Positions 1 through 44,420 are shown, counted from the first letter of the stretch. The stretch is 58,228 nt of DNA from a bacterium (GCA_041658465.1 JBBAAC010000001.1:1-58228), one strand, 5' to 3'. Numbers and translations are program-made. The notes: generated from the sequence alone by a model not told the origin.

Positions 1-1
1 C

Positions 2-1294
2 ATCGCGCTCGAGGAGCGCCTCGAGGAAGTGGGGCATTACTCGGAGATCCCCGCTTTTTCAGACCCGGACCCGATATTGGGCCGCGAGTTCCCGGAAACC
101 GCGATGGTAAGCACAAGGGTCCTGCTCAATATGCCAAGGAGCGATATCGTGGATCAGATGATACGCGCGGTGCCCGGCATGTTACGTCCGGCGGTAATTC
201 TGACGCTCGCCGCGAACACAGCCAATGAAACCGGGACGGCAAAGGAGTTTATCGCCGCGCAGGACCCGCTCACGACGAAAATGGTTGAGATCACCAGGCG
301 CGGGACGCCGATGACAAAAAAAGAGGCGGAAGAGCTGTCGCGAGGTTATCAACGAATCTACCGCATGCACGCCCCCACCATCAGGGAGCTGCTCTCGAGA
401 AAAGTCGAGGGCGGCATGAGTTGGTGGGAACAGGTCAGCGGGTTCAGTGAACCCTGGCGAGCGAGCGAAGGCTGGAACTTATTCACGCCGATCGAGAGGC
501 TCTTCGCGATATGCCCGGAGTACGCGAATGTCGGTGAACCGTCGATAAAGGGAGCACTCGAAATTCTGATGAAAAATGGCGCAGCGCAGGTCCGGGGCTC
601 TGAGATATTCAGAAACATGCTGCGATTTGCAGAACTGAACCCTGAGTTCAGAGGTGCAATTGCAGTGCTCGCCACGGTCGGCGGAATATTCCAGTCCTCC
701 GAAGATAAAGGGCTGCATCCGGAGGTCCGCCAATTTTTCCGATCATTCACGGCGGGCGGCGGCAGCATGACGCCGGACGCATTTGTTTCAGAGCTGACGA
801 GGCCTGAAATGATCTCCGCAGTCCGAAAGTTCGTCTCGAGTAAACTGGACGGCGCGGACATTGACCAAGCTGCTATGATACACTTTATTGGAAGAGCTGA
901 GCCCTGGCTGCCGGCCATCGGCCCAGCCGCGTCGGTAGAAGCAAAGAAGAAGGACGGCGGCGACAAGGGCAGCCCCTCGGGCGCCTCCTCCCCCGCCGCA
1001 CCTGCCTCGCCCGCGGCAGCCCCGCCCGCGGCACCTGTTGCTCCGTCTGACAGCGGGAGGGCCCTGGGCCTAGCGCTGCCGATCGGTCAAACGCCAATAA
1101 TTACGGGCGGTTTCCTCGAAATCCCAGCCCTGCCCTCGCCGGCGGATGCGATCCACAGCGGCGGGTCTGATACCTATTTTACCAGCGACGAGGCCGCAGA
1201 TACCACTCAGATCGACATGACAGAGACCGCCCTCCCTTACGAGCTCATCGGTCCTGGTCTGGCGCCGGTCTCCATAGCTCCAACGCTGATTTAA
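2..1294 (+). CDS. C-terminal part of a large orphan protein (5' end lies outside the window); paralog of the C-terminal region of the downstream 2,500-aa protein
   Basis: The frame is open from base 2 (IALEERLEEVGHY...), so the GTG at 29 is probably internal. The blocks RIYRMHAPTIRELLSRKVEGGMSWWEQVSGFSEPWRASEGWNLFTPIERLFAICPEYA and MLRFAELNPEF align with RFIELYGAHGQEIRAAMASKQVEGMTAAEWLTGHTDPWTDKSEWKGYSPIERLYGVAPEFA and MLMFAEAHPEF of the 1361..8863 product. It has a PA/S-rich C-terminal linker. Confidence 0.6.
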   Translation: MALEERLEEVGHYSEIPAFSDPDPILGREFPETAMVSTRVLLNMPRSDIVDQMIRAVPGMLRPAVILTLAANTANETGTAKEFIAAQDPLTTKMVEITRRGTPMTKKEAEELSRGYQRIYRMHAPTIRELLSRKVEGGMSWWEQVSGFSEPWRASEGWNLFTPIERLFAICPEYANVGEPSIKGALEILMKNGAAQVRGSEIFRNMLRFAELNPEFRGAIAVLATVGGIFQSSEDKGLHPEVRQFFRSFTAGGGSMTPDAFVSELTRPEMISAVRKFVSSKLDGADIDQAAMIHFIGRAEPWLPAIGPAASVEAKKKDGGDKGSPSGASSPAAPASPAAAPPAAPVAPSDSGRALGLALPIGQTPIITGGFLEIPALPSPADAIHSGGSDTYFTSDEAADTTQIDMTETALPYELIGPGLAPVSIAPTLI

Positions 1295-1360
1295 TGCGTA
1301 TTTCCCTTGCCTAAGTGCTAGTAAAAAAGATAGCAAGACATATAGAAGCGGACGGCCACG

Positions 1361-4300
1361 ATGGTCACCCTAAGGCCGCCGACAGGCGGCACACAAGGTC
1401 CGGACAGAGAATACGGTTCATACCCACCTGAGCAAAACACTTATGAACCGCAAAGCACACATCCATCCGCGCCGCCTGATTCATACGTCAGCCCGAAAGA
1501 AGAAACCCCTTCTCTGCAGCTGATCGCATCCGCCGGGTCGGCCGGCGTCGCGCAGCTGCTGGCGCAACCGCGGCTCACGCAGAGTGCGATCAATGAAAGG
1601 GTCGAGTTGCTCGCGAGCTCGATCGCGCAGGACCTGCGTCGCGACGACCCGCTCAGCATTGATATAAATAACGATCGCCGCATCATCTCAACCGCCATCG
1701 CTTATCTAAGGGAACATTTCGATCCGCTGAAGACTGGTCAAGGACGGCCCCCGGCCGATAAACTGATAACGGACTCCCTGCGTTACGGATTTCGGGATAC
1801 GCTTGGAAGGACTCCCGGCAGGAATAACTACGAGATAGGACATCTGATCAGCCCATTCGCGCGGTTCGTGCATGAAAACGCCGCAGCGCTCGAGATCGTG
1901 GGCACGAGGCTCAGGGCCAAGCGCCTGGGCGGACGGCCATCCGCGCGATCAGCGCCTTCTACAATACCGCCCCCGTTTCAGGACAGCGCCGCATACCCGC
2001 TCGGCGGGTTGCGTGAGCTGCTCGCCCCCTGGCTGCCGCGAGATTCGGAGGGACGGGCACGCTTTGAGGATCAGTTTGAATCCGCGACAAACTATACGCT
2101 GACCAGGTTTATGCTCTGGGGCAGCGCACGCCAGAGGCCGGCCGTGATGAGCGGCCGCATCTGGGAAACGCTTCTCGCCCTCAGCAAATCGGATGAAGAG
2201 ACGTTCGAGTTGCTGCTGGCTCACCCTGAGAAGAACATCACAGATCCGGAAGTATGGCAAAAGACGGTGGAACGCGCGAGGGCGACAGCCGGGTTCGCCT
2301 CGCTCGGGGCAAAGTATGTCCCGGACCGGATCACGGACGACGATTGGAACCGCTATGTCGAGGCGAGACTCTCGGACGGCCACCCCGAGGACGTGGCCGT
2401 GGAGCCCCGCACCGGCGAAGCGCTCTCGGCAATGCTGCCCGCGTATCTCTTCCTGCGCTCGCAGGGCTTCGACGTGAACGCGGTGGATTATCTCAGCGCA
2501 ATTTATCCGCTCTTCGGGGAGCTCGTGGCAAACGCGCGGAGCCGCGGCGCCGACGGTTCGATACGCATCGAAGTGCCGCTCTCGATTATGGGCGATAAAT
2601 TTTCGCTCAGGGACCTCACCTACGAGACATGGGCGAAACAGATAGAACAGCAGGCTTTCCCTACGCTCGTGCTCAAACGAACGCTATCGCAGCATGCGGA
2701 TGGTCTGCATAACCCCGTCTACCGCAACGTCGAGCGGTATGCGAAACCGCTCGCCGCGAGCGTCGGCGCCACCCCGGAGCGCGAGCGCACCATCTATCTC
2801 TTCCTCGCCACCCTGCCGCGCGCGGCGGATATACTCTATCACACGACCGCGGTATACGGCCCCAACGGGGAGATGCTCTCCGCCCCGATGGCGGGCAGCG
2901 GCCTCGGCCCGGCCATCCACATAATAAACGACGAGGCGCGCTATCCCACCGGCTACAGGGCGCCGACGAACAGCCGCAGGAATACGCTTCAGCTCGACGT
3001 GCGGCGAGGCGCATATCGCGCCATGCTGGAGCTTTCCGGCAAATACCTGGCGCAGATACAGTCGGTCCATGAGCAGCAGAGCCCGCAACTCACATTCTCA
3101 TATTCGGACGGAAGGATGACATCGCTGGCCGAGCTCATGGAGCACCATAGATCGTTTGCCCTGCGAATCGATGGGTTCGACAAGCAGCTCTTCGACAACG
3201 AATCGGCGAAGGGCGCGGACCTGAGGGACGTCAACGATTTTTATCTCGACCTGCGCGGGATGGCCGAAGACCTCTTCTTCTTCGTGCGCGTGCGGGGCCA
3301 GATGCCGTCAGTGCTCGGCCCGCTTCCGTTTATCGCGGCGGTAAGGATGGAGGGGCGCCGCACCGGTTCCGACGACTCCGCCGTCCTCTTCCTGAACGAC
3401 ATCGCTCTGAAGGCGGGTGAAGAGAATTGGGGCCAGAGCAGAACCAATGCCGTCACGCTCATGCGCATCTACGCCTGGCATGCGTTGAATCGAGGTTATA
3501 TCTCGGCCGAAAACGCCCAGGATCCGGCTTTAGTGGCCTCGGCCACGCGGGCGTTTCTCAAGAGCGAGGAGCCATGGTGGGAGCAGGCGGCGCTGGATTA
3601 TGTCCAGATGGAGAAGGAGCAGGCGACGGTCCACCTGCGCGATACGATTGGGGATGTCCATCACCAGCGCCACGGCGCCAATGCAGACATAGTAGCGACG
3701 CTTCGCAACAGCTTGCCGCACGAACCGGCGCCTGTCCTTGCAGCGGACGCGGCCGCCGAGCCTGTGATCGCGCGACGCGCGGTCGAAAGCTATGTCGCGC
3801 TCTTTCCGCAGGAACGCGATGTGGATTCGGGAATCCCGATCGATCCGGCCCTCGTCCGGCTCTTTGTCGATCTGGAATCGTCGAATTACCAGGCCCCGCG
3901 CCGCGAGCTCGCTGCGCTGCAGGCGCTCGACGCCCTGGAGAGATACAACGAGCAGCGCGGCGCCCCGCCCATAGCTTTAGCGAACGACGCGACAGCGTTG
4001 CCCACACAGGGGCTTGCGCTGCAGAGATTTGAGCTCTTCTCATTCGAGTGGAGCGTCCGACGGATCGACAAGCGCAGTTCCTATAACCGCGATGCGGTCT
4101 GGAATGCATTCTGGCGGCTCCGCGAGAAAATCATATCGGGCGAGACGGTCGATGACGACGACATCCACAGGGCTATCGCCGTCTCTTCTCAGGGCGTCAG
4201 GACGAACGGCACCGAGGCCGGCATGCTCGCGCACATCGTCGCAAAGCATCAGCGGGACCTCAAGACCTTCAGAGAGCTCATGGCCGCTCCCTGGCTCGGG

Positions 4301-7300
4301 CTGACTTCCTTTGTGCGGGAGAGATTCGTAGCGCGATACATCACGGATGAAGCGCTGCAGGCCTTCGCTGAACGCTATGTCTCTCACAGGCTGACATCCG
4401 TATCGCCGGTCGACACGGACGGAATCGTAGCGGAGGCCCTCGGGGACGCGTTTGTGCCGCACCTCGACATCACCGAGAAGATGGCGGCGTTCTACCGCAC
4501 GCTCGTGGGCCGCTGGTTCACATGGGCTGAAGAGCAGCTCTCAAGCAGGGTCGAGGAGGGCATGCTCGCAATCGATACCGTCGCCGAGGATGCTGACAAC
4601 CTGCCGCCAACGGTTGAGATACTCATGTTGAGGGCCGCCGACCTGGCGGGCGCCGTCTCCTTTGACGATCTCGTAGCAGCGGAGCAGAAGCTCCTGCTCC
4701 TGCGCGAGCTTTTGGGGGATCGTCCATCGGGAGAGCCGCTGAAAGCCGCTGCCCTGCGCACCTATAGCGAACGGGTAATTCCCGCACAAGAAGCGCGGCG
4801 CGCACGAATGGGACGCGAATTCATTGCGCGCAACACCTCCCTTGAGACGGAGCTCAGCCTGATGGCGCGAGAGGTCTCAGGACACCTCGAGCGATCGGCG
4901 AAGATCTTCATAAGGGCCCCGGAGATATTGGAAATGGACGAGCGGGCCGTGACTGCGTTCATGGCAAGCATCCAGTCCAGCTTCAACAATCTTTCGGACA
5001 TCCAGAGATCTCACTTACACTTGGGGGATCTGTCTGGAAAGGCGGCGCGCATAGCCGAACAGCTTGGCCACGGCGAAGGCGCAGTACGGACAATCCGTGA
5101 GAATATGGTCAGGGCGGAACAGAACATCGCAAGGGCGCAGGACCAGATCGTGGAGGCCCATGCAGCGGGCAAGAAGAGACAGAGCGAGCTAAGACAATTG
5201 TCCGATGTCTCCCAAGCCGAGCGGCGGGCGGCCGAGGCGCAGGCTGATGCGGAGGCGCTCATCGAGAGCCTGGAGAGATCCCTGCAGGAACTCGAAGAAC
5301 TCCGCGCAAATGATGTCGCTCAGAGCTCAGCGGATTTTGAGAAAATCAAGCAGTCCCTGAACCAAGACTCTCCAGCAGACGTCCTGAGATTCGCGGCGGC
5401 GGTCCAGGCCTCGGCTTCCCTGTCAGGATCGACTTCGGGGATCATGATGAGGCTGGATGTGCTGCGAAGTCAGATCGTCGAACTGATCGAAGTGCACGAC
5501 CCCTCGTCGGACGCGCCTTCCCTGACTTCGCACGCGTCGCAGCGTCTCGTGGATGCAATGGCCGCAGCAGTCGATGACGCCCGCTGGAATGAGCTTGCAG
5601 CCACCGCGGGGCGGCTCTCCACTGCGATCCACAATGGCGGGCGAACGGCGGACGATATCCAGGCCATCATCCAGGGCATGGAGACGAGGATCTCGGAGCT
5701 CGCGGATGCGCTGTCGAATGCGGAGAATAGGCTGCCGATCGGGCCGATGGCGGGACTCGATTTGTCCAAACAGGGCGTCGCACCTGCGGAAGAAGGCAGG
5801 TACGATTTTGCATCGGAGGCGCCGGAGGGAAATTACGATACCAGGGCGCAGAACGCGCTGAAGCCCCTGCTCTTTGGCCGGATACTCTCCCGCCGCGGCG
5901 AGGCAAGGCAGATCGGCCAGCAGCAGGCATCGCTCGTAGATGGATGGCTCAAATCCGGACGGCGCAGCCCGTTGTCGATCCGCGACGCATTCGGGAATAC
6001 CGTCGAGATTGCGAAGGAGGAGCGCGGCATCAGGCTCGCAAATCACGAGGAGCTGCCCCAGGAGCATCCGCTGCATCGCCTCATCAATACGCTGGGCGCG
6101 GCTGTGGCGGAGAACAGCGCGGAGGCCGGCCTGATAGCGCTCTTCGCAAGGGAAGGACTGAGGGGGGGGAGGTCCCACGCCCTGCTCCTCGATCTATTTG
6201 CAAACCTCGCATCAAGGCCGATTGCAGGTGCCCCCTCTGAAGCGCGCGGGATCGTGCGCGAGTGGGCGCTGTCTAACAGGGCGAGGATCGTCTCCGCGCT
6301 CAGGAAGCCGGCCAAGATCTTCTTTGTCTCGAAGGGAGGGCCGGCCCCGATAACGATAAGTTCGATCGGACTCCGCCCGCCCTCCTACACGCCAGATGAA
6401 CACGCAAGGCTGGCCCGCCGCTTCGCGCGGTTGATCGAACATCCTGAGTTTGGCACCATGATCGCCAATCTCCCTGATGGGACCAGGCGTTTTCTCAACG
6501 TGGACGTGCTCGAGGTACGCCAGGCTCTTCAGGAGGGAAAGAGATCGGTGCGTCACTTCGATCTCGACGACGGAAAGTGGATGAGCTTCGACCTGCGCCT
6601 TAACGGAATCGCGTCGCTCGATCAGCTGGCGCTCGACAGCGCGCCTGTCGCATTGCAGCCCGAGCGGCTCGCCTTGATGCGCCTAATGTGGAGGATCCAC
6701 AGCGATCCTGCGCTCATCGATCTCGGCTGGATCGCCTCTGCCGCCGCCGATGCCTCCATGCCGATTCATCACATGCTCCAGAGCACTCTCAAGACCATAG
6801 CACACGCGGAACAGCGGCCCGGCGGCAAACCGCCGCTCGATCTACACGCTGCGCAGAACGAGATGCGGGGGGCCTATAAGGAGCTGGCGATCGGAGCCGC
6901 CTCGCTTCCGGAGGCGGAGCGCGTAAAAAAACCGGTCCTCCTGGACTGGTTGGCTCGAATCGGTCCAAGCGCGGGAAAGATCCGCGAACTCATCGAGAGC
7001 AGCCCGACCGTTCGCCGAATGGCCGCGAGGGTATTCCTCATGCACGAGTGGTCGACGCGCCATGGCAACGAGTCGGACGCGGCTGAAATCCGCGAGACGT
7101 TCGCGCAGGTGGAGGAGCTCATGCTCTCGCACCGCGAGCAGCGCGAGGCCGCACTCGAGAAATTCATGCGCGATGACTATCTCTCGATACGTCCAGCGGT
7201 GATCGCGGACAGCGAACTCATGCAGTCCTCCACCGGCCTGCATGCGCCTCAGCTGATCGCGCCGTTTACCGCGCCCGACGCGGAGCTGGCACGGCTCTGG

Positions 7301-8863
7301 CCCGAGACCGGGTCCGTGGGAGGAAGCCAGGTCTGGGCGCTCGTGGAGGCGCTGAAAGAGGGGCATGGCTGCGCCCGGCCTGGGCTCGTGAGGATGTTCG
7401 ATGCGTTCCCGGAGTTTGCAAACGCGCTGACCATGATCTCCTTGACCTATGAACGCCTCCGCCCGGAACTGCTTTCCGGCATAGAGGCGATCGCGGCCGA
7501 CTACGACTCAATGCAAGGCGTAAAGGGCCGCGATGCGACAGGAGCGTTTCGCAGGCGCTTCATCGAGCTGTACGGCGCGCACGGGCAGGAAATACGCGCG
7601 GCAATGGCTTCAAAGCAGGTCGAGGGAATGACCGCAGCTGAGTGGCTCACGGGCCACACGGATCCATGGACGGACAAGTCGGAGTGGAAGGGATACAGCC
7701 CCATCGAGCGGCTCTACGGCGTCGCACCCGAATTCGCCAGGATGATCGATGCACACGTCCAGCAGATCCTCCAAAAGATAAGGGAATGCGAGGATTCGAC
7801 GAGCGGCGTAGCCGATCGCCAGAAGAACCTCGTCAAATCAATGCTCATGTTTGCGGAGGCGCATCCGGAATTCTCAAAGCCGATCGCGCTGCTCACCCTC
7901 TTGTTCGAGCTCCTTCCGGAAAAGATCATCTGCGACAAAATCGTCCCGTTCTTCCTGAAGGAGAACGGCCAGTGGAGCAACTCGTCGGCCGCCGCCGCTT
8001 TCGCGAGCGCAAATGCCGCAGAGCTTGCTCCCGAGCAGGAGTTTGTCAACCTGCTCATACGGCCTCAGACGCTCGCGGCCTTGCGCGCGGCGATGCAGAG
8101 GCCGCCCGCCAGGCACTCCGGCCCATCCATAGCCGTGGTCTTCCAGGGCAGCGATCGGCCGTGGCTGCCAGACCCGGAGGCTCTCGCCATATCGGATCGC
8201 ATGAAGATCCCGGCGTTATCGGGCCGTGAGCTCATAGCGCACATCGAGCGGCAGCTCGTCGAGACAAAACACCTGTACTCACCGACCGGCATTAGAAAAA
8301 ACCCGCTGGATGAGCTTAACGCAAAGGTGGATTTCTGGCTCGAGAGGGAACAGATTCACGCCGAGTCCGGCAATGATGCGATCCTCTTCGTCGGCAGCGA
8401 AGCTACGAAGAGATGCCTGTGCAAGATGATGCTGGTCCTCGAGAGCGCCGCGCAGTCGCTTGCGCCTACCCAGACTTTCCGCGGAATGTTCGTGAAGTTC
8501 ATGGAACAGAACCGTTCCGACGACGACGTGCTCCGCTTCGCCTACAACTATCTCATCGACCATCGCGATCAGATAATCGAGGCGACGGCGAAGCCGAAAA
8601 AGAGCTCCGGCAACGACGGCGGAACCCTGTCGCCGCTGCGGTCGGCGCCGAAGCCGTCTGCTTCAGCGGAATCGGGCCCTCCCCCCTCGTCTGCAGCCCT
8701 CTCCTCGGGCGCTGACTCGCATGACTCCCCGCCCGAGAGCGCGGAGGGCGAAGGCTCCCCTGAAGATGCCGTCCTGGAAGGCGGTGCCATGGTCTACGAA
8801 GGGAACGATGCAGCGATAGGCCCCGGAGTCATACTCACCCCTGTTCCACCCGCGGTTCGCTGA
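1361..8863 (+). CDS. Giant (2,500 aa) orphan protein with no recognisable catalytic motif, a central coiled-coil and a recurring PEF helix motif
   Basis: Single uninterrupted 7.5-kb ORF, with only short ORFs in the other frames. I saw no signal peptide, Walker A or HExxH motif. A coiled-coil-like stretch is present (EQNIARAQDQIVEAHAAGKKRQSELRQLSDVSQAERRAAEAQADAEALIESLERSLQELEEL). The motifs IEHPEF, AFPEFA, VAPEFA and AHPEF recur. Confidence 0.75.
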   Translation: MVTLRPPTGGTQGPDREYGSYPPEQNTYEPQSTHPSAPPDSYVSPKEETPSLQLIASAGSAGVAQLLAQPRLTQSAINERVELLASSIAQDLRRDDPLSIDINNDRRIISTAIAYLREHFDPLKTGQGRPPADKLITDSLRYGFRDTLGRTPGRNNYEIGHLISPFARFVHENAAALEIVGTRLRAKRLGGRPSARSAPSTIPPPFQDSAAYPLGGLRELLAPWLPRDSEGRARFEDQFESATNYTLTRFMLWGSARQRPAVMSGRIWETLLALSKSDEETFELLLAHPEKNITDPEVWQKTVERARATAGFASLGAKYVPDRITDDDWNRYVEARLSDGHPEDVAVEPRTGEALSAMLPAYLFLRSQGFDVNAVDYLSAIYPLFGELVANARSRGADGSIRIEVPLSIMGDKFSLRDLTYETWAKQIEQQAFPTLVLKRTLSQHADGLHNPVYRNVERYAKPLAASVGATPERERTIYLFLATLPRAADILYHTTAVYGPNGEMLSAPMAGSGLGPAIHIINDEARYPTGYRAPTNSRRNTLQLDVRRGAYRAMLELSGKYLAQIQSVHEQQSPQLTFSYSDGRMTSLAELMEHHRSFALRIDGFDKQLFDNESAKGADLRDVNDFYLDLRGMAEDLFFFVRVRGQMPSVLGPLPFIAAVRMEGRRTGSDDSAVLFLNDIALKAGEENWGQSRTNAVTLMRIYAWHALNRGYISAENAQDPALVASATRAFLKSEEPWWEQAALDYVQMEKEQATVHLRDTIGDVHHQRHGANADIVATLRNSLPHEPAPVLAADAAAEPVIARRAVESYVALFPQERDVDSGIPIDPALVRLFVDLESSNYQAPRRELAALQALDALERYNEQRGAPPIALANDATALPTQGLALQRFELFSFEWSVRRIDKRSSYNRDAVWNAFWRLREKIISGETVDDDDIHRAIAVSSQGVRTNGTEAGMLAHIVAKHQRDLKTFRELMAAPWLGLTSFVRERFVARYITDEALQAFAERYVSHRLTSVSPVDTDGIVAEALGDAFVPHLDITEKMAAFYRTLVGRWFTWAEEQLSSRVEEGMLAIDTVAEDADNLPPTVEILMLRAADLAGAVSFDDLVAAEQKLLLLRELLGDRPSGEPLKAAALRTYSERVIPAQEARRARMGREFIARNTSLETELSLMAREVSGHLERSAKIFIRAPEILEMDERAVTAFMASIQSSFNNLSDIQRSHLHLGDLSGKAARIAEQLGHGEGAVRTIRENMVRAEQNIARAQDQIVEAHAAGKKRQSELRQLSDVSQAERRAAEAQADAEALIESLERSLQELEELRANDVAQSSADFEKIKQSLNQDSPADVLRFAAAVQASASLSGSTSGIMMRLDVLRSQIVELIEVHDPSSDAPSLTSHASQRLVDAMAAAVDDARWNELAATAGRLSTAIHNGGRTADDIQAIIQGMETRISELADALSNAENRLPIGPMAGLDLSKQGVAPAEEGRYDFASEAPEGNYDTRAQNALKPLLFGRILSRRGEARQIGQQQASLVDGWLKSGRRSPLSIRDAFGNTVEIAKEERGIRLANHEELPQEHPLHRLINTLGAAVAENSAEAGLIALFAREGLRGGRSHALLLDLFANLASRPIAGAPSEARGIVREWALSNRARIVSALRKPAKIFFVSKGGPAPITISSIGLRPPSYTPDEHARLARRFARLIEHPEFGTMIANLPDGTRRFLNVDVLEVRQALQEGKRSVRHFDLDDGKWMSFDLRLNGIASLDQLALDSAPVALQPERLALMRLMWRIHSDPALIDLGWIASAAADASMPIHHMLQSTLKTIAHAEQRPGGKPPLDLHAAQNEMRGAYKELAIGAASLPEAERVKKPVLLDWLARIGPSAGKIRELIESSPTVRRMAARVFLMHEWSTRHGNESDAAEIRETFAQVEELMLSHREQREAALEKFMRDDYLSIRPAVIADSELMQSSTGLHAPQLIAPFTAPDAELARLWPETGSVGGSQVWALVEALKEGHGCARPGLVRMFDAFPEFANALTMISLTYERLRPELLSGIEAIAADYDSMQGVKGRDATGAFRRRFIELYGAHGQEIRAAMASKQVEGMTAAEWLTGHTDPWTDKSEWKGYSPIERLYGVAPEFARMIDAHVQQILQKIRECEDSTSGVADRQKNLVKSMLMFAEAHPEFSKPIALLTLLFELLPEKIICDKIVPFFLKENGQWSNSSAAAAFASANAAELAPEQEFVNLLIRPQTLAALRAAMQRPPARHSGPSIAVVFQGSDRPWLPDPEALAISDRMKIPALSGRELIAHIERQLVETKHLYSPTGIRKNPLDELNAKVDFWLEREQIHAESGNDAILFVGSEATKRCLCKMMLVLESAAQSLAPTQTFRGMFVKFMEQNRSDDDVLRFAYNYLIDHRDQIIEATAKPKKSSGNDGGTLSPLRSAPKPSASAESGPPPSSAALSSGADSHDSPPESAEGEGSPEDAVLEGGAMVYEGNDAAIGPGVILTPVPPAVR

Positions 8864-10181
8864 GGCCGCCCCGGTCCGAAGGAAATCTTCCCGCTACAAG
8901 ATCCGCGAAGCGCTTCCTGTTATCGTCCATGCGGCTATGGTACCGCGGCATGGTGGATTCGATGCGGCGTCGGATGCGATCCGCCTCTGCGCGAAGCGCC
9001 AGGGTCTTCTGCATGAGCTGCGCGGCTATCCTCTCCTCCTCGTAAGAGAGGAGAAAATCCTGAAGCAGGCCGAGCTCGTCCATGATCGAGGCGATGCGCT
9101 CGTCATGCGCGAGCCCTATCACCGGGATCGCGCCACCCATCGCCAGGACGAGGGCGTGATACCGGCATGTCACGAGCCAATCCAGCCTGCGCAGAAGAGA
9201 AGTCATCTGCGCTGCGCTCGCATGGTCCGCATCGATCAGCACCGACGGCGATTGCATAATCGCCATCACATCCCTGCAGGGAGAAATATCCAGGCTCTCC
9301 ATCGCGAAGAAGACAACCTGGGCGCCCAGCTCCGTCACGGCCCAGTCAGCGTACGCGGCGATCGACTCCTTCATCTCCTTGCTCTTTCTCCGGGAGTCGC
9401 CGCGCCAGGAATGATAGTAGATCGACTTGTATCGGTCCTTTTGCACGCCGAGGGCGGCCTTGAGGATGCAGGGAACGACGGGCCACCAGAAAAACTCCTC
9501 AAATGCGATACCGACGATCGGTCCCTTCATGTCAACGCCCTGCCCCGCGAGGACCGTTTCCGCCCACTGCCGATCCTCCGGCACGAGCGAAAACGCCGTA
9601 TCGGTGGTCACGGCTATCTCACGGTCGACTCCGAGGGATCGGAGTACAAAGGCGGCGTTGTCGGTGCGCACCATCAGCAGGTCCATGCGCTGCGCCACGG
9701 CCTTGGCCCAGCTGGCGTTTGCCGGAGTGAGTGCCCCCGCATCGACCCCGTAAGCGACGGTGGGTATCCCTACCCTCTGGGCAAGGTCGGCGGAGTAGAG
9801 AAAAAACCACAAAAGCGCGGGCGAGAAATTCTCCTTGAAGCAGCTCCCCTCTACGAGGACCACGATGTCGGCCTTCGCGACGAGCCGCGCTATGCTCACG
9901 ACGAAGACCGGATTGATCTGCGCAACGCGCAGGCGCTCGCTCTCGTCCAGATAGCGGAGCGTGCGGCGGCGGTCCAGGGACGTGAGCGTCACGCGCACGC
10001 GCGGGTCCGCGTCCAGCATCTGCCGGATCGCCTCGGACGTCCTCGCCTCAGCGCCCGTGTTGTTCGCGCCGCCGTAGCCCACTACTAGACACTCTATCGG
10101 CATGCCAGGGCGCCACACCCGCCGCCTCCTCCTGATGAACGCGGCAAAGATCCAGACAATCGCCCTGAGGAATGTAACCAT
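8835..10181 (-). CDS. Polysaccharide pyruvyl transferase family protein (CsaB/WcaK-like); an alternative start at 10103 (MPIECLVVGYGG) is possible
   Basis: The N-terminal VVGYGGANNTG and the C-terminal CRYHALVLAMGGAIPVIGLAHDERI resemble the G-x-x-N-x-G and R-x-H...G-x-P-x-x-x-L signatures of PF04230. This was recognised by eye only. Confidence 0.55.
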   Translation of the reverse strand: MVTFLRAIVWIFAAFIRRRRRVWRPGMPIECLVVGYGGANNTGAEARTSEAIRQMLDADPRVRVTLTSLDRRRTLRYLDESERLRVAQINPVFVVSIARLVAKADIVVLVEGSCFKENFSPALLWFFLYSADLAQRVGIPTVAYGVDAGALTPANASWAKAVAQRMDLLMVRTDNAAFVLRSLGVDREIAVTTDTAFSLVPEDRQWAETVLAGQGVDMKGPIVGIAFEEFFWWPVVPCILKAALGVQKDRYKSIYYHSWRGDSRRKSKEMKESIAAYADWAVTELGAQVVFFAMESLDISPCRDVMAIMQSPSVLIDADHASAAQMTSLLRRLDWLVTCRYHALVLAMGGAIPVIGLAHDERIASIMDELGLLQDFLLSYEEERIAAQLMQKTLALRAEADRIRRRIESTMPRYHSRMDDNRKRFADLVAGRFPSDRGGLSEPRVEQG

Positions 10182-12166: not shown

Positions 12167-13492
12167 TCACGGAAGATAGGCGAGCCCGAACGGAGCGGTC
12201 CCTCCCGCAGACACCGGGGTCCCCTCTTCCGTGAGAGTACCATCCGCGCCGTAAGTTAATATGGACACGGTAGCGCTGCCAGCGTTTGCGCAATAGAGCG
12301 TGCTATGCCCGATGTCCACGGCAAGGGCCACGGGGTCCGTGCCGCCGCTGCCGGGCGTCGAGACCAGCGTCAGGGCGCCGGTGTCGTCGTAGGTGAAGGA
12401 CGACACGGTCTTGCTGCTTTGGTTCGCCACGAACAATATGTTGCGGTCCGCATCTACCACCACGTCCGCCGGCCCCACGCCGTTTGCGGCAAAGGGCGAT
12501 CCGGCAGCGGCGGTGAGTTTGCCGCTCGAGTCGAACGTGAAGACCGAGACCTGCGCTGAATTGGAATCCGCGGTGAATATGAGGTGAGAGGAGACATCCA
12601 CCGCAACGGCGGACGCGCCGGCACCGCCCGCTGTGAATGGAGAGCCCGCGACTTCGGTGAGATCGCCCGCGGCATCATATGAGAAGACCGCGATCGTGTT
12701 GCTGCCGGAATTCGTCGCAAAGAGGAGCATGAGCGTGGAGTCGATCTTGACATCGGTCGGCGCCGCGCCCTGCGTGCTGGTAGTTCCGCTCACGTTCGTG
12801 GCCTTTCCGGTCACAGGATCATAGGTGAAGCTGCTCACAGTGCCCGATGTCCTGTTCGCGGTGAACGCCAGCAGGTGATTGGAGTCGACCGCCACGGCCA
12901 CGGGTCCCACCGAATTCACTCCTGCCGGACTGCCGCTCTGAGTAAGCGTCCCGTCGACATACGAGGCGCTAAAGACCGCGAGCGTGGAGCTGTTTCCGTT
13001 GGGCACGAAGACGAGGCCGTGCTCGACATCCGCAGCAGCGTCCTGCGGGGCCACGCCCTGGGTGGAAAAAGGCGACTTGGAGAAGGCGGTCATAGTGAAG
13101 TTCGCGGTGTCGACATTGAAAAGCGCCGCCTGCGCTGAGTCCCGGTTTGCCACGGCGAGCATGCTCACGTAGGTGTAGCCGCCCTTGCGCGTTACGCTCT
13201 TTGCCTTGGAATTGGTGACGGTCACGTCCACGGCCCCCGTCTCGATCGCGGACGGGGCTATGACGGTAAGCGACGTCGATTGCGCCTGCGTCACCGTAGC
13301 GGGCTGCGTGCCAAAGGCCGCGGTGGTGGTGGAATCGAACTGGGTGCCGGAGATGACTACCTCAGTGCCGCCGTGGACGGTGCCGGCTGAAGGCGTTATC
13401 GAATTGATGCTTATCTCCGTCTCGACGATCCCGCAGCCAATGGAGAAGATGAATGGCAGCAAAACAACGCACGCGATTCGAACTATGCGCAT
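12167..13492 (-). CDS. Lipoprotein with an N-terminal IPT/TIG-like domain followed by lactonase-type beta-propeller repeats
   Basis: The start at 13492 is preceded by GGAGGG. The signal and lipobox is MRIVRIACVVLLPFIFSIGC. Blades recur with the pattern LxFxxNxxSxTVSxFTxD (for example LLAFTANRTSGTVSSFTYD and ILFVANQSSKTVSSFTYD). Confidence 0.6.
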   Translation of the reverse strand: MRIVRIACVVLLPFIFSIGCGIVETEISINSITPSAGTVHGGTEVVISGTQFDSTTTAAFGTQPATVTQAQSTSLTVIAPSAIETGAVDVTVTNSKAKSVTRKGGYTYVSMLAVANRDSAQAALFNVDTANFTMTAFSKSPFSTQGVAPQDAAADVEHGLVFVPNGNSSTLAVFSASYVDGTLTQSGSPAGVNSVGPVAVAVDSNHLLAFTANRTSGTVSSFTYDPVTGKATNVSGTTSTQGAAPTDVKIDSTLMLLFATNSGSNTIAVFSYDAAGDLTEVAGSPFTAGGAGASAVAVDVSSHLIFTADSNSAQVSVFTFDSSGKLTAAAGSPFAANGVGPADVVVDADRNILFVANQSSKTVSSFTYDDTGALTLVSTPGSGGTDPVALAVDIGHSTLYCANAGSATVSILTYGADGTLTEEGTPVSAGGTAPFGLAYLP

Positions 13493-13674
13493 GACAACCC
13501 TCCGTTCGACTGAGACAGTCATAACATCTTATCCGGCAGATTCCAAGCGTCTCGGAGGCCGGCCCCACCTGCCCGCAAATGCCCGTAGATTCGCTTTTTC
13601 CCTTGAATATTGGGCGGCTCTTGTTGTAGAAAGACTGACAAACCCAATATAGCAATAATTGGAGGGAGGCTCAA

Positions 13675-15480
13675 ATGGTGCTCTGGGAAAGAGTCCGTTC
13701 GATCACGGCAATAGCCGCGCTCTCATGCGCGTGCCTCATCGCAGCATGCGGAGGCGGGAGCGGCGGCGGCGGTGCGGGCAGCAACGGGTTGGCCGCTCCT
13801 ACAGGCGTATCAGCCTCGGCCGGGGATGCGCAGGTGGTCCTCAACTGGAATGCCGTGGATGGCGCTACGGGTTACGCGGTCTTCACGGCAAACTCGGCGG
13901 GCATAGCGGCCTCGATCTCCAAATCCACCGACACACCGACGGAGATCGATGTCACAGACGCGCCCTACACGCACACGGGGCTCACGAACGGAACTGCGTA
14001 CTACTACGTAGTGGCGGCTGTGAATGCGGATGGCGTGGGCGCGCTCTCGGATGAGGTCACAACCACGCCGCTGCTGGGTCTGCCCGCTGCACCGACGGGC
14101 CTTGCGATTACCGTCGGCAACAAGAGCGTCGCGCTCAACTGGGATGCGGTGAGCGGCGCTACATCATACAAGTTGTACTGGAACACGACCGCCGGCATCG
14201 ACACGAGCACGCCGAACACTCAGACGTCGACCGCCAATAATTTTGCGCATGCGAATATCAGCAACCTCAACACGTATTATTACAGGGTCGCTGCCGTGAA
14301 TTCCACAGGCGAGGGCACGCTGTCGGAGGAGAAATCAGCCACGCCGGCGTTCGGAGGCAGCGAGCTGCTGAGCATTAAAGATGCCCCGGCAACCTTTGAT
14401 GATGAATACGGATATGCGGTCGCAATCGACGGCGACACGGCGATCGTGGGGGCGCCTCACTATTTTAATCTTAATCCAAATAAGATGGGCAGTGCTTTCA
14501 TATATAGATACAGCAATGGTGTATGGACCAAAGAAGCTGAACTCGCAGTTCCAGCAGGAATCGCGAACACCCACGGCACGTATGGAAAGTCGGTCGCCGT
14601 CAGCGGGAATCTGGCAATAGTCGGCAACCCTACGGGCTGGGGCAACGCCGATCTCTCCGGAGTGGCGGCCGTGTTCAAGCGTACAGGAGCTGCGTGGGCG
14701 GAAGAGACGATCCTGACCGCATCCGACGGCCTGGCAAACGACAAGTTCGGCGCGTCCGTTGCGATCAGCGCAGACGTCGCTGCTATAGGGGCGCCCGAAG
14801 ACGATAACGGAGGCAAGCTCGATAACGGTGGCGTATATTATTACGCTACTGCCGGATGGGTCGCCAAACCTGAAATAAAAGGCGCCGTCGCCAACGATCA
14901 GTTCGGATTTTCAGTTTCCCTGAGTGGAATTACGCTACTAGTAGGCGCACCTTACAATGACTTTGTACCTGCAAATGCGGGACGCATCTATTTCTACACG
15001 CTAAGTGCAATTCCTTCGTTAGACGCGACCGCAGACGGCGGCGCAGCAAACGACCAGTTCGGAAAAGGCGTTGCAATAGACGGCAATGTGGCGATCGCGG
15101 GCTCGCCGAGCGACGGCAGCAAAGCCGGCTCAGCCGTAGTCTTGAGGTACAGCGGCGCTGCGTGGGCGGAGGAGAAAGTGCTGACGCCATCGACGACCTC
15201 GGTAAACGACCAGTTCGGGTCCTCGGTTTCGATAAGCAACAACTACGCGATCGTGGGCAGCCACCTCAACGACGACAAGGCCGGCGATGCGGGCGCGGCA
15301 TTCGTTTACAAGTACAACGGCACGACGTGGGCAGAGGAGGCAAAGCTCCTCGCGTCTGACGGTGCGGGCAACGACCAGTTCGGCTACTCGGTCGGCATCG
15401 ACAGCGATCTCATCGTCGTCGGCGCGTACCTGGTCGATCTCGCGGGCGCTGCGGATGCAGGAGGGGTCTACTTCTACTGA
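13675..15480 (+). CDS. Lipoprotein with two FN3-like modules and FG-GAP-type repeats
   Basis: GGAGG lies upstream. The lipobox is LSCACLIAAC. It has two modules of the form 'APTG ... LNW(N/D)AV(D/S)GATxY ... Y(Y)Y(V/R)V(A)AVN', then repeated (N)DQFG(Y/F/S)SV ... VGAP units. Confidence 0.65.
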   Translation: MVLWERVRSITAIAALSCACLIAACGGGSGGGGAGSNGLAAPTGVSASAGDAQVVLNWNAVDGATGYAVFTANSAGIAASISKSTDTPTEIDVTDAPYTHTGLTNGTAYYYVVAAVNADGVGALSDEVTTTPLLGLPAAPTGLAITVGNKSVALNWDAVSGATSYKLYWNTTAGIDTSTPNTQTSTANNFAHANISNLNTYYYRVAAVNSTGEGTLSEEKSATPAFGGSELLSIKDAPATFDDEYGYAVAIDGDTAIVGAPHYFNLNPNKMGSAFIYRYSNGVWTKEAELAVPAGIANTHGTYGKSVAVSGNLAIVGNPTGWGNADLSGVAAVFKRTGAAWAEETILTASDGLANDKFGASVAISADVAAIGAPEDDNGGKLDNGGVYYYATAGWVAKPEIKGAVANDQFGFSVSLSGITLLVGAPYNDFVPANAGRIYFYTLSAIPSLDATADGGAANDQFGKGVAIDGNVAIAGSPSDGSKAGSAVVLRYSGAAWAEEKVLTPSTTSVNDQFGSSVSISNNYAIVGSHLNDDKAGDAGAAFVYKYNGTTWAEEAKLLASDGAGNDQFGYSVGIDSDLIVVGAYLVDLAGAADAGGVYFY

Positions 15481-15597: not shown

Positions 15598-17175
15598 TCA
15601 CTGCAGCCCGCTCAGCTCCGTCTCATATACCTTGCCGACGGGCTCGCTGCCTGCATCAGTGCTGTTCTCGACGGTCAGCGCTACATAATGTTTGGTGTTC
15701 ACCACCACCGACGGCCCTGCGGCCCCCGGAAGATTCGTCACAAGCGTACCCTTCCACCCGTTGGAATCCATATTGCGGGAGAGCAGCGCGCCGCCTTTCA
15801 ACGCATCGCCGTACACTCCGGCGTCCGTGATCAGCGCTATCTTTCCAAAGACGTTGGTGCCGTAGATGAAATTCTTGACCTGCATGATCAGCATCGTCAG
15901 TGGATACGACTGCGTGCCGTCCTCCCACTTGACCCCGAAGAAGGCCGCGTTCGGCTTCTGCATGCCGACGAGGAACGATGCGCCATCCTCGGTCATCGTA
16001 AGGGTGGGCGACATCTGGGCCGTGATCTTTCCGAGATTAAAGGATTTGCATCCTGAGTCGTTCATCGCGTCGCACACATCCAGCATCGCCGCGTTGGCTG
16101 CGCCGTCGCCCGGATCCCATCCGTAGCTGTTGGAAGAGAGCACCGCATAGCGCTGCACCTGGCCGCCCTCTACAGGAACAGGATCCTTGTCGATGAGCGC
16201 CATGCCGGTCGGATTGAGGCCGGACGTAAGCTGCGCGGTCGCCCATGCCACGCTCACCGTGCCGTCGTAATTGTAGGGCATGCAGATCACGCTGCCCGGA
16301 TAGAAGGTCGTCAGGGTCGGGTCCGCATCCGCATGCTTCAGGTTGGATGTCGCAACGCAGAGCTTTCCGCCCGCCAGGACCGCGCCCGACGGATTATTTA
16401 TCGTGGACTTAATCTGCGCATAGAGCGGATCGAGCGGGCTTATAGATCCGAAATTCACGCCCGCTGTGACCTGCGAGGTCTTGCCGTTGATGATCGTGAA
16501 GCCGTGCGGCGAGGAGTGCATGACCGCATAGTACTGATCGTTGAGAGCAATGTGGTTGGACGGATAGCCGCCCGAGTTTCCGAGTTTGGTCCACGCGCCT
16601 GTCTGCCCGAGCGCGGGAGACCTGAAGAGCGCGTTGGGCTGGACACCCACGGCGCCGCACGCCATCAGAAGCGAGTTGTTCACTACCTCGTATCTCAAGC
16701 TCGCGGCCCAGGGACACGGCGCATCCGAATAATAAGACGCGATCGGCGCCAGGGGCCCCGAACCGCCAGAACCCGCGGTGCCGCCGGTGCCGGAGCTGCC
16801 TGCAGTACCAGCCGTACCGCCACCAAAACCTCCAGCGCCTCCCGTGCCGCTCGAACCGGCCGGACCTCCGCCAGTGCCACCCGTCCCCGCCGTACCGCCT
16901 TCGCCTCCGCTTCCTGCAATACCTCCGGAGCCGCCCTGCGGCCAACCGGCCGAGCCGGCCGAGCCCGCAATGCCCCCCGCCCCGCCGGTATACCCGCCTG
17001 CCCCCCCGGTGCTCACATCGGGCTGGGACACGTCCGAATCGCTCCCACCGGCTCCACCTGTATATGTATTGGCATCAGTTCCAGAGGGGGGCTCGAGTTC
17101 GCCCATCGTATCGAGCGTGCATCCCGCCACGCCGAACCCCAGAGTCACGCCAACTGCGGTCATCCAGTTTGTCAT
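15598..17175 (-). CDS. Lipoprotein with a Gly-rich linker of roughly 100-120 aa and a conserved C-terminal domain of unknown function (paralog A)
   Basis: AAGGAG lies upstream. The lipobox is GFGVAGC. The linker is GGAGGYTGGAGGIAGSAGS...GTGGTAGSGGSG. The C-terminal domain YYSDAPCPWAASLRYEVVNNSLLMACGA...GYPSNHIALNDQYY...DPLYAQIKSTINNP is shared with 17240..18619. Confidence 0.7.
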   Translation of the reverse strand: MTNWMTAVGVTLGFGVAGCTLDTMGELEPPSGTDANTYTGGAGGSDSDVSQPDVSTGGAGGYTGGAGGIAGSAGSAGWPQGGSGGIAGSGGEGGTAGTGGTGGGPAGSSGTGGAGGFGGGTAGTAGSSGTGGTAGSGGSGPLAPIASYYSDAPCPWAASLRYEVVNNSLLMACGAVGVQPNALFRSPALGQTGAWTKLGNSGGYPSNHIALNDQYYAVMHSSPHGFTIINGKTSQVTAGVNFGSISPLDPLYAQIKSTINNPSGAVLAGGKLCVATSNLKHADADPTLTTFYPGSVICMPYNYDGTVSVAWATAQLTSGLNPTGMALIDKDPVPVEGGQVQRYAVLSSNSYGWDPGDGAANAAMLDVCDAMNDSGCKSFNLGKITAQMSPTLTMTEDGASFLVGMQKPNAAFFGVKWEDGTQSYPLTMLIMQVKNFIYGTNVFGKIALITDAGVYGDALKGGALLSRNMDSNGWKGTLVTNLPGAAGPSVVVNTKHYVALTVENSTDAGSEPVGKVYETELSGLQ

Positions 17176-17239: not shown

Positions 17240-18619
17240 CTACTGTAGTCCGGCCAGGTCGGTCACGAGTACCTGTCCTTTTGACTCAGGGCCTGCGTCC
17301 CCCTGGACCGAGACCGTGACCGCCGCAAAGTGTTTTCCATTTATCACTATCGACGGGCCGGCCATCCCCGGCAGCGGCGTGGCCAGCTCGCCCTTCCATC
17401 CGGACGGATCCATATTTTGGATGATAAGCTGACCGCTCTTTGCAGGATTATCGTACATGCCCGCGTCCGTGGCGAGCGCTAGTTTTCCAAATATGCCCAT
17501 CCCGTAAATGTAGTTATTCGCCTTGAGCTGGGTTGAAGGATATGAGCTTGCGCCGTCCTCCCACCTGATGCCCAGGAATCCCGCTGACGGCTTCTGCACA
17601 CCGATGAGGAAGGATGCGCCGTCCTCGGTCCTTGCCAGCACCGGCGCGGTCTGCGTAGTTCTCTTGCCGAGGGATATCGAATTGCTGCTGCCGGAATTGA
17701 TCTCGAATATGTCGAGTTTGGCATCATCGGCGGGATTGTTCGCGTAGCTGTTGGAGGAGAGCGCCGCAAATCGCTGGATCGTTCCGCCATCTACGGAGAC
17801 AGGATCCTTGTCGATGAGCGCCATGCCGGTGGGATTTACGCCGGAGGTCATAAGCGCGTATGTCATGGCAACGCTCACCGTGCCGTCAAAATTGTACGGC
17901 GTGCAGATGACGCTGCCCGGCTTGAACGTGGTCTTGGATGGATCGTTCGGATCGATCTGATCGAGGTTCGATGTCGCAACACAGAGCTGCCCGCCCACGA
18001 GCACCGCGCCTGCCGGATTGTTGATCGTGGACTTGATCTGCGCGTAGAGCGGATCAAGAGGGCTTATTGCGGCGAAATCCACGCTGGCCGTGGACGTGTT
18101 GTTCTTGCCGTTGATGATCGTGAAACCGTTGGGAGCCGAGTGCGTCACCAGATAGTATTGATCGTTGAGCGCGATGTGATTGGAGGGATAGCCCTTTGCA
18201 TTGCCGACCTTTGTCCAGGCGCCGTTCTGATTGAGCGGCTGCGACCTGTGGAGCGCATTCGGCTGGCCGGCGTACGCACCGCACGCCATTAGCAACGTGT
18301 TGCTGACCTGCTCGTAGCTCAAACTCGCCGGGAAAGGGCACGGTGCATCAGAATAAAAATTCGCCTTGGGCGGCTTCGGCTTGTTAGGACCTGCTTCGGC
18401 GTCGCCGGCATCCGGCTTCGTAAAAACATCCGCATCGAGCAGCGCATCGGGATTCATCGCGTCATCCGGTTGCACATCAGAAGGCGAATCCGGCGCGACG
18501 ACTATGTCGCTCGAAGTGTCGATCCCCGCATCAGAAGAGTTGGCGCCGGCGGTAAACTCCTCACCGCCGCACGCGGCCAATACCAGGGAACTCAATACAC
18601 ACATCTCCGCTGCACGCAT
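17240..18619 (-). CDS. Lipoprotein with an acidic linker and the same conserved C-terminal domain (paralog B)
   Basis: AAGGAGG lies 5 nt before the ATG at 18619. The lipobox is LVLAAC. The C-terminal domain FYSDAPCPFPASLSYEQVSNTLLMACGA...GYPSNHIALNDQYY...DPLYAQIKSTINNP is collinear with paralog A. Confidence 0.7.
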   Translation of the reverse strand: MRAAEMCVLSSLVLAACGGEEFTAGANSSDAGIDTSSDIVVAPDSPSDVQPDDAMNPDALLDADVFTKPDAGDAEAGPNKPKPPKANFYSDAPCPFPASLSYEQVSNTLLMACGAYAGQPNALHRSQPLNQNGAWTKVGNAKGYPSNHIALNDQYYLVTHSAPNGFTIINGKNNTSTASVDFAAISPLDPLYAQIKSTINNPAGAVLVGGQLCVATSNLDQIDPNDPSKTTFKPGSVICTPYNFDGTVSVAMTYALMTSGVNPTGMALIDKDPVSVDGGTIQRFAALSSNSYANNPADDAKLDIFEINSGSSNSISLGKRTTQTAPVLARTEDGASFLIGVQKPSAGFLGIRWEDGASSYPSTQLKANNYIYGMGIFGKLALATDAGMYDNPAKSGQLIIQNMDPSGWKGELATPLPGMAGPSIVINGKHFAAVTVSVQGDAGPESKGQVLVTDLAGLQ

Positions 18620-18780
18620 CAAAGCCTCCTTACAAAGCCCCCGCAGTGCGCTCTATACCTCGCTTGCCGGACCAAAGCAACGGCCTTGTGTTGATATTCC
18701 TGATTTGCCGGGAGCAGCTCCTGCAAAAAGGAAGGAAGGCCAGCAATGCCAGTCAGGCCAGCAAAGTGTGAAGTGCGAGA

Positions 18781-21591: not shown

Positions 21592-21760
21592 GGTGCCTCC
21601 TGTTCACAGATTTATTTTTGAATTCCAAACAAAAAGAGGCAAGGCCCTCTCCGGACCTAGCCCCCATGTCGCGGCTATACAAAATATACTCCTTTGCGGC
21701 AAGGAAAAATTACCCCCGTTTTCTACGTCGACCGACGACGCGTCTGTTCTGTATATTGTC

Positions 21761-23002: not shown

Positions 23003-23047
23003 TAATTATCGGCCTGAAGGCCGGAAAGTTGCGCTATTTATGGCGGG

Positions 23048-23258
23048 CTGCGGAGTGGCACGCAGTAAGCGGGGTTCCGCCGTTTATCGATAGGCCGCGA
23101 ACAACGGCGCAGAATAAGCGGTGACCTGCGGCAGGCTTCGAGCAATGGGGACCGCGAAGGCTATAATTCCACCGTTAGCCGTATGAGCTGAGACCAACTC
23201 GGTGTCGGCTTGCGAGATGCCAGCCGCAGGTCGCCGCGTACTTCATGGCACGTAGCCA
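23048..23258. repeat. R-element, locus 2 (single unit, opposite orientation)
   Basis: gtggcacgcagtaagcggggttccgccgtttatcgataggcc...gcggtgacctgcggcaggcttcgagcaatggggaccgc...caccgttagcc...aactcggtgtcggcttgcgagatgccagccgcaggtcgccgcgtacttcatggcac is the reverse complement of the left unit at 47802-47995. Confidence 0.8.
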
Positions 23259-23340
23259 GGCGAATATTTGAATTCGGGCGTGACGCGCTGCATCAGTCGA
23301 TATCCTTGCTTTTCAAGCTGAAATCGGGTCTAAACGGCGC

Positions 23341-24897: not shown

Positions 24898-24916
24898 CTT
24901 CATGGCGTTAAAAAGT

Positions 24917-24948
24917 AAAAAGGCCCTCACGATCATGAGGGCCTTTTT
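24917..24948. terminator. Bidirectional rho-independent terminator
   Basis: aaaaa-ggccctca-cgatca-tgagggcc-ttttt, between convergent genes. Confidence 0.7.
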
Positions 24949-24994
24949 GTATACCTATTAAGATCTCAAGCCGACGCCGGCTTGAAGCCTTGGT

Positions 24995-32779: not shown

Positions 32780-33079
32780 CCTGCCTCCCCTTGTGTCATT
32801 GCGGGCCCTTCGACGTTGGGCTTCGGCTGCTGAGCTCAGTCGAAGCCCTCAGGGCGAAGCCTGCCTGCCGGCAGGCAAGCAATCCCCCGCAAACAGTGCC
32901 GCCGCTTATTAGCGATTTCGACAATAAATGAAAATAAGCAACCGCATCCTTATTAAAGGAAACTTTAATTAGATGGACGCTTATTTAAGTTTAGGGCGTT
33001 ATCCTTAAATAAGAAATTTAAAGGCCATATATTACAGCTACTTACAACACCATCTTTTTTCGCCATCTCGGCTTAATTC

Positions 33080-34851: not shown

Positions 34852-34889
34852 AGGCCAACTGCCGATGCACATGCAGGCCATCTCTCCTC

Positions 34890-34918: not shown

Positions 34919-34926
34919 GTCCATAA

Positions 34927-35190: not shown

Positions 35191-35192
35191 CT

Positions 35193-35465: not shown

Positions 35466-35501
35466 CCCGACTTTCTCCGGATGAACCATTTGTTGCATAA
35501 T

Positions 35502-42329: not shown

Positions 42330-44420
<2,091 letters not shown>

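Follow-up and report, generated by a model that had tools for sequence, protein, structure and literature searches.

Giant, mostly helical bacterial proteins encoded in tandem at a conserved locus form an undescribed family restricted to one lineage

Crescentin and the Streptomyces proteins Scy and FilP, the latter encoded by adjacent paralogous genes, are non-enzymatic, lineage-specific proteins with a coiled-coil segment and no nucleotide-binding motif. SMC, MukB and Rad50 have two large ends and a long coiled coil. H. pylori CagA and the Legionella proteins SidC/SdcA and LpiR1 are large helical proteins that have disordered tails and tandem paralogs and evolve fast. RTX toxins, LapA, MARTX and RsaA are giant, acidic and Cys-poor, have no N-terminal signal peptide and end in conserved C-termini. 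Each of these descriptions fits in part a 2,500-residue protein, designated g3, which is encoded at positions 1361-8863 (+ strand) of a 58,228-nucleotide stretch of bacterial DNA (GCA_041658465.1, JBBAAC010000001.1:1-58228; the window, meaning the whole stretch analysed). In this study, we found that g3 belongs to an undescribed, small, lineage-restricted family of giant, mostly helical bacterial proteins. A conserved locus in one uncultured lineage, with one to five tandem giants that combine new folds with a new repeat, may build an undescribed large structure of the cell, which could be a scaffold (cytoskeleton-like or in the envelope) or a surface assembly that is secreted. We advance this overall interpretation tentatively, at a strength just short of even.

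The family was defined by an exhaustive HMMER phmmer scan of 1.84 billion representatives using g3 residues 45-1180 as the query. The scan found 43 relatives at E <1e-3, with 35 at E <1e-10 and 21 at E <1e-30; given the query range, this count covers relatives of the N-terminal half of g3 only. By this comparison, g3 is not the orphan that an earlier annotation, made from the sequence (the initial annotation), had taken it to be. Full-length relatives were nearly all 2,000-4,400 residues long, and the shorter ones that we looked up lay on short contigs or were flagged as partial. A single colinear architecture was found throughout, with a 350-400-residue insertion after the N-domain in many relatives and a C-terminal module that occurs one to three times per family member. 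A word-index protein search with whole g3 and with a module alignment returned no match, not even to g3's own cluster, which the collection holds, and is uninformative; with 43 relatives given by the exhaustive scan, a word-index search that finds nothing for a long or low-complexity query is not evidence of absence. A genome-contig locus search with g3 alone or with module alignment A1 found no related locus. The first metagenome locus search also found none, and a second with profile A5 recovered two loci, L009 and L010, both of them distant. No member was found on the viral contigs searched. In a comparison based on YchF, the nearest named relatives were metagenome-assembled genomes (MAGs) labelled Deltaproteobacteria or Pseudomonadota bacterium. 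The lineage may correspond to the GTDB phylum UBA10199; a literature search on UBA10199 found nothing about the giant family.

The g3 open reading frame (ORF; 2,500 codons) is deposited at NCBI as MFA5810696.1 (WC956_00010) and annotated as 'hypothetical protein'. An open frame that enters from the window edge and ends at 1294 corresponds to WC956_00005 (partial), likewise a 'hypothetical protein' at NCBI. Its translation (430 residues, 2-1294, + strand) is the C-terminal end of a second giant, g2, and consists of a second copy of the C-terminal repeat module followed by a P/S/A-rich linker and a conserved tail. A scan of the 66-nt spacer between the two genes (1295-1360) for sigma-70-like promoters and terminators gave nothing above chance, and an Rfam scan of the window gave no match. 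This arrangement is compatible with co-transcription of g2 and g3. The initial annotation had called the gene 66 nt upstream a paralog with the same motif twice. This was confirmed by BLASTP, which aligned residues 114-304 of the fragment with g3 residues 2065-2270 (26% identity, E 7e-15), and the PEY (ICPEYANV) and PEF (LNPEFRG) motifs of the fragment are in register with those of g3. Recovery of the upstream contig, a check proposed in the same annotation, yielded the full g2 of 2,759 residues on ENA contig k141_451999 (L001 1655-9934). Alignment of the complete proteins extended over their whole length at about 27% identity, with blocks 1-774/1-753 (E 8e-62) and 998-1927/967-1874 (E 3e-58). 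By these alignments, g2 and g3 are genuine, diverged paralogs.

Where the initial annotation had counted only two adjacent paralogs, we found at least three. A further gene, g1, lies upstream of g2 and is truncated where the contig begins; the 1,594 residues that can be read comprise three tandem C-terminal modules and a tail. The proteins g1 and g2 start with 'IRKTTDG' and 'VRKTTDA', respectively. In the same population, another contig of 13 kb (L011; likewise L012 and L013) starts with genes for RNase E/G and rSAM-DUF2344 that run on the opposite strand. These are followed by a short family member of 1,044 residues (WC956_01825) that has the stalk-flanking regions only, an unrelated protein of 1,009 residues built of 75-residue repeats, and the first 284 residues of a full-length family member that runs off the contig. 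The short protein is a fourth family member that probably lies upstream of g1. Since rSAM-DUF2344 directly precedes the giant genes in relatives, we infer that L011 joins the ENA contig (L014). The joined locus would then read rSAM-DUF2344, the 1,044-residue protein, the 1,009-residue protein, g1 (about 3,300 residues), g2, g3, pyruvyl transferase and MiaB. The 1,009-residue protein (L011 9419-12448, + strand) contains about ten tandem 75-residue, helical-looking repeats of the type 'YALSTLV.AL.AGGRI ... MASARELYDRS.ILK.I', and no Pfam match was found for it.

The alternative that g3 is the product of a chimeric assembly, or a long non-coding ORF, was examined with independent assemblies. The identical 2,500-residue product was present on the NCBI MAG contig, on the 91.8-kb ENA MEGAHIT contig (L001/L014) and in Logan assembly L002; another MAG, WC690, contains a partial, apparently identical copy, so that the same sequence occurs in three to four independent assemblies. 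The window and L001 were 100% identical across 18.9 kb. An ORF of 2,500 codons is not expected by chance in DNA of about 61% GC, diverged homologs have a common architecture, and the structure models described below are confident. These results exclude an artefact, including the assembly chimera that the initial annotation had named as a risk. The sole assembly irregularity concerns g2, which the NCBI MAG splits into 2,329 and 430 residues on two contigs. The break falls exactly at the window start (g2 residue 2329-2330), is spanned by the ENA MEGAHIT contig, and probably arose because the duplicated C-terminal module repeats there.

The architecture of g3 was next examined with AlphaFold2 models built from family alignments A3 and A4. 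The N-terminal model (g3 residues 40-1180) reached a mean predicted local distance difference test score (pLDDT) of 84.9 and a predicted template-modelling score (pTM) of 0.67, and the C-terminal model (residues 1440-2400) reached 85.9 and 0.74. Both models contained about 58-60% helix and 3-6% strand. All parts of g3 are given here with their window positions on the + strand. The protein begins with a disordered N-terminal tail (residues 1-72, 1361-1576) of P/S/G/Q/T/N-rich composition with pLDDT <50 at residues 40-71, in line with the disordered P/Q/S/T-rich N-terminus described before, and the tail carries a short N-terminal peptide common to the paralogs (A5 consensus 'MxxIRxPxG...DSY'). 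A four-helix N-domain (residues about 73-200, or 73-184 up to the linker, 1577-1960) was delimited by the AlphaFold2 model and the domain coordinates of relatives, and the low-confidence linker after it (residues 185-209) is the insertion site in many relatives. The core domain (residues about 216-790, with 210-757 as an alternative delimitation, 2006-3730) is the best-conserved part of the family; it is mostly helical with few short strands and has the signature 'EDvtVEPR ... DYLaAIYP'. A helical region follows (residues 791-1175, 3731-4885; secondary structure of the model and homology blocks), closing with a 49-residue helix (residues 1127-1175) that leads into the stalk. The N-domain and the core domain belong to a large helical head of about 1,100 residues, which full family members have in common.

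The central stalk (residues 1176-1460, about 285 residues, 4886-5740) is coiled-coil-like in composition, with 1.8% Pro and 2.1% aromatic residues, and a crude score gave a continuous heptad-like signal. Its database matches were weak and of coiled-coil type only, for example to SMC at E 0.0015. This region corresponds to the central coiled coil named in the initial annotation. Beyond the stalk lies a small alpha/beta domain (residues about 1480-1660, 5798-6340) with conserved W1529, R1534, D1542, F1544, G1545 and G1556, which is also present in the short members of about 1,000 residues. The C-terminal module (residues 1680-2280, 6398-8200) was defined by alignment A1 and self-comparison and modelled with pLDDT mostly >85. 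It consists, in order, of an HPEF motif with a beta subdomain (strands 1697-1758), an SDPALxDLGW motif and tandem helical repeats. An extra helical unit (residues 2281-2412, 8201-8596) was modelled as helices and aligned with the preceding repeats by self-comparison. The protein ends in a G/S/P/A-rich linker, disordered by composition, and a short hydrophobic end peptide (...AAIGPGVILTPVPPAVR; 8597-8860). Most members end in the same way, with a low-complexity linker and, after it, a hydrophobic peptide rich in Met, Ala and Pro.

The initial annotation had noted a recurring PEF/PEY helix motif. All four quoted copies were found in g3, at residues 1695, 2017, 2123 and 2169, against 0.59 expected (Poisson p 0.003), and P2017, P2123 and P2169 fall in family-conserved columns. 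Internal repeat detection, also suggested there, was performed by profile self-comparison with hhalign. The C-terminal module proved to contain an internal tandem repeat with units of about 130-165 residues: module columns 81-425 aligned with columns 196-590 (E 2.4e-16), and in whole g3, residues 1980-2412 aligned with residues 1849-2267 (E 3.9e-9). Self-comparison of the whole protein found no repeat in the rest of g3. Each unit carries the motifs 'D.ELAR..PE(T/F)' and 'hPEF', with 'TG..PW' at its end. In the AlphaFold2 model, the preceding helix stops one or two residues short of the proline; in three of five cases, the next helix begins at the proline itself. Because of these helix boundaries, the PEF motifs are read, on the model, as marking where helices start within a long helical repeat of a new type, which makes the earlier term 'recurring helix motif' more specific. 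No Pfam match to HEAT, ARM, TPR or Sel1 repeats was obtained, and the unit of about 130-165 residues compares with 30-45 residues in those repeats.

Searches against known families were then compared. No significant Pfam match was obtained for g1, g2 or g3, nor for the short member and 15 distant relatives. A PAS-domain protein, the JGI name for P0010, was ruled out, as no Pfam PAS match was found. NCBIfam had no match to g3 or the 430-residue g2 fragment, and PHROGs had none to g2 or g3. PADLOC-DB 2.0, searched with g1, g2 and g3, returned coiled-coil noise only (E ≥0.025). In the PDB, a phmmer sequence search found nothing, and the 10-sequence A5 family profile found coiled-coil or designed-helix noise only (E ≥0.0045). 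Foldseek queries were whole model tiles, and none gave a significant match: the best E values were 0.38 for the N-terminal model and 0.11 for the C-terminal model against the PDB, and 0.043 for the N-terminal model against BFVD, with TM scores ≤0.1 throughout. A phage origin is ruled out in the absence of any PHROG, BFVD or viral-contig match. A polymorphic toxin is also ruled out, since the C-terminal region is conserved and repeated and is not a variable toxin tip. These results suggest that, as far as tested with whole tiles against the PDB and BFVD, nothing known is close to the family or its fold. They agree with the earlier statements that the proteins have no homology to known machinery and are a plausible seat of new biology, in that high-confidence models were obtained without a match.

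The dumbbell layout and the weak stalk matches to SMC, JetC and LmuB models raised the question of an SMC-, MukB- or Rad50-like organiser of chromosomes or nucleic acids that lacks the canonical ATPase. However, the TIGR02168 match reached 16 bits, far below the cut-off of 567, and covered the coiled-coil segment only, and no fold match to SMC heads was found. Motif scans detected no Walker A, HExxH or CxxC motif in g3, and [AG]xxxxGK[ST] is absent from g1-g3. The strongly acidic character of the proteins is also unfavourable for DNA binding. We therefore consider such an organiser very unlikely. In the columns conserved across the family, P, G, W, F, A and L predominate; the polar positions are scattered and form no catalytic constellation. 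From these patterns, g3-type proteins are presumed to be non-enzymatic. The same motif scans, together with the Kyte-Doolittle analysis (highest 19-residue mean 1.33; no signal peptide or transmembrane helix in g3), bear out the earlier description of a 7.5-kb ORF without signal peptide, P-loop or HExxH.

We investigated the genomic surroundings of the family in related genomes. The loci examined mostly share one site, with rSAM-DUF2344, the giants, and MiaB followed further on by YchF, in four or more related genomes. In GCA_021810905.1 (L003/L006), the closest relative, proteins of 1,104, 2,850 and 2,289 residues are followed by pyruvyl transferase and MiaB in the same order as in the window. 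L005 has rSAM-DUF2344, proteins of 2,728 and 1,360 residues, pyruvyl transferase and MiaB ... YchF, and L007 has rSAM-DUF2344, a protein of 3,617 residues and MiaB ... YchF. In L004, three family members are arranged around a ResIII helicase gene, and L008 carries a subfamily of about 2,000 residues in a different gene context. The window's YchF shares 86% identity with its counterpart in the L003 genome and 70% with the L004 and L005 counterparts. The shared chromosomal place in genomes at this distance therefore indicates, by synteny, vertical inheritance at a core-genome site. In comparison with the L003 genome, the giants are 31-40% identical and their neighbours 54-73%; by these identities, the family evolves faster than the neighbouring genes. 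None of the loci examined has secretion or mobile-element genes next to the family, and no ABC/MFP/TolC or other secretion genes were found within about 10 kb in seven loci.

The giant, tandem and fast-evolving genes could also fit an anti-phage or other conflict-system component, and the L004 helicase gene (1,346-residue ResIII/DEAD) between family members would fit such a role. However, the family occupies a fixed site between housekeeping genes at the YchF identities of 70-86% given above and not a variable island, PADLOC returned coiled-coil noise only, no nuclease, ATPase or protease motif was found, and there was neither a member on viral contigs nor a PHROG match. A defence island is ruled out by the fixed synteny and the lack of a PADLOC match, and we regard a conflict-system role as highly improbable. 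Both this and the SMC-like reading fail their defining features. The initial annotation had offered three functional classes; the conflict system is thus disfavoured, and a scaffold is only slightly favoured over a secreted protein.

Several neighbours of the family in relatives were recorded. The L004 helicase is a 1,346-residue ResIII/DEAD-box protein (21485-25525, + strand) between members of 3,209, 3,763 and at least 1,847 residues on a 1.03-Mb contig. The 1,360-residue protein adjoining the 3' side of the giant in L005 (18225-22307, + strand) has three PTS-HPr domains (E 5e-29), an unusual HPr architecture. In the closest relative, a 385-residue DUF4116-repeat protein (L006 5353-6510, + strand; E 1.3e-6) lies directly 5' of the short member.

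A non-enzymatic, dimeric or oligomeric scaffold or tether is the function that we propose for g3 and its paralogs, as a possible and not yet a probable one. In this proposal, the proteins would be structural and would dimerise or oligomerise through the coiled-coil-like stalk, and the helical-repeat modules might offer protein-binding surfaces. By analogy with the linker and C-terminal peptide of FtsZ and SSB, the terminal peptides may dock to partners or to the next subunit. The tandem paralogs could be co-expressed subunits or variants of one structure, with a slight preference for a location in the cytoplasm or at the envelope. Sequence scans detected neither an export signal nor a transmembrane segment, and no RTX (GGxGxD) or LPXTG motif. 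The number of modules per protein ranges from 1 to 3, a variation that a binding or spacer array would show, and both termini are disordered linkers with conserved short end peptides. The A/L/E/R-rich make-up resembles that of soluble helical cytoplasmic proteins.

Other observations weigh against a scaffold. No homology or structural analogue backs any function, and the adjoining genes offer no functional link. Cysteine makes up 0.22% of residues in the family and 0.95% in 22 neighbour genes, a fourfold depletion, and the first 2,003 residues of g3 contain no Cys (p 3e-6). This depletion, together with the acidity of the proteins (net charge -55 and -64), is more typical of exported proteins, and the fast divergence shown by the identities to the L003 genome, with tandem expansion, would also suit surface or effector proteins.

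Accordingly, we considered that the giants may be exported, as a surface-layer or fibril component or as translocated effectors. In either case they would exit unfolded by a signal-peptide-independent route, of type I-like or other kind, that recognises the conserved C-terminal tail. Besides the Cys depletion, net charge, divergence and tandem expansion, the disordered N-termini speak for export, and the proteins have no N-terminal signal peptide yet carry a linker and a conserved hydrophobic C-terminus in most members. However, RTX and Ig-like repeats are absent, the seven loci lack nearby secretion genes as described above, and known type I signals do not resemble the Met/Pro-rich tail. The composition is helical and A/L/E/R-rich, the genes sit at a core-genome position, and the organism has ATP-citrate lyase and looks free-living. 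In about 105 kb of genome read, no Dot/Icm or type III machine genes were seen. On balance, export is the main rival reading and only slightly less likely than the scaffold.

Family genes occupy about 25-30 kb in total in the window genome. If the models have no relatives among known folds, protein space would gain several domain folds and a long helical repeat that are new, and the tens of kb that the lineage spends on these genes at one conserved locus would point to an undescribed large structure or export substrate. A small, delimited and confidently modelled family is also a tractable target. Giant hypothetical proteins are common in MAGs, which tempers this interest.

The genes beyond g3 were also surveyed. 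A polysaccharide pyruvyl transferase gene (8835-10181, - strand), which is not a family member, is convergent with g3, overlaps it by 29 nt at the 3' end and is syntenic. A divergent pair at 12167-15480 encodes an IPT/TIG protein with a lactonase-type beta-propeller and a protein with fn3 and six FG-GAP repeats; both are probable secreted proteins, and the pair is syntenic with the giant locus in relatives at 41-62% identity. ORFs without a Pfam match were found on the - strand at 15598-17175, 17240-18622, 20053-21591 and 28912-31515 (525, 460, 512 and 867 residues), the first two of which are conserved in the closest relative at 63-67% identity. The remainder of the window is ordinary chromosome, with YchF, ZnuABC, Mla, a sigma-54 activator, a PrkA - DUF444 (YeaH) - SpoVR trio (39613-44420, - strand) and both ATP-citrate lyase subunits (52719-55980, - strand). 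ATP-citrate lyase suggests a reductive tricarboxylic acid cycle and a free-living autotrophic or mixotrophic lifestyle. The stretch 32000-40000 has a G+C content of 0.52-0.54 against about 0.60 elsewhere and is possibly an acquired island; it contains a Fic-domain gene (36256-37344, - strand) and ORFs at 33166-34851 and 37452-39467 without a Pfam match.

Finally, we compared the giants with the described systems. No sequence or fold similarity to crescentin, Scy or FilP was found, and the coiled-coil-like stalk is about 11% of the protein here, with the bulk in two large helical globular regions. The layout of SMC, MukB and Rad50, with two large ends and a long coiled coil, may recur in the giants, but these have no Walker A motif or ABC-type head, and no profile match to a hinge domain of this type was found in the stalk, which has coiled-coil composition only; the giants are not homologous to these proteins. 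CagA, SidC/SdcA and LpiR1 were among the non-significant Foldseek matches (E 3-6, TM ≤0.1). In contrast to these effectors, the giants lie at a fixed core site with no nearby secretion system, in a window without host-associated signs. RTX toxins, LapA, MARTX and RsaA differ from the giants in their RTX nonapeptides, Ig-like beta repeats or adjacent ABC/MFP genes, and Pfam scans of the family found no HemolysinCabind or Big domains. With about 60% helix, the giants combine the size, acidity, Cys-poor make-up and conserved C-terminal ends of these exported proteins with a mostly helical architecture.

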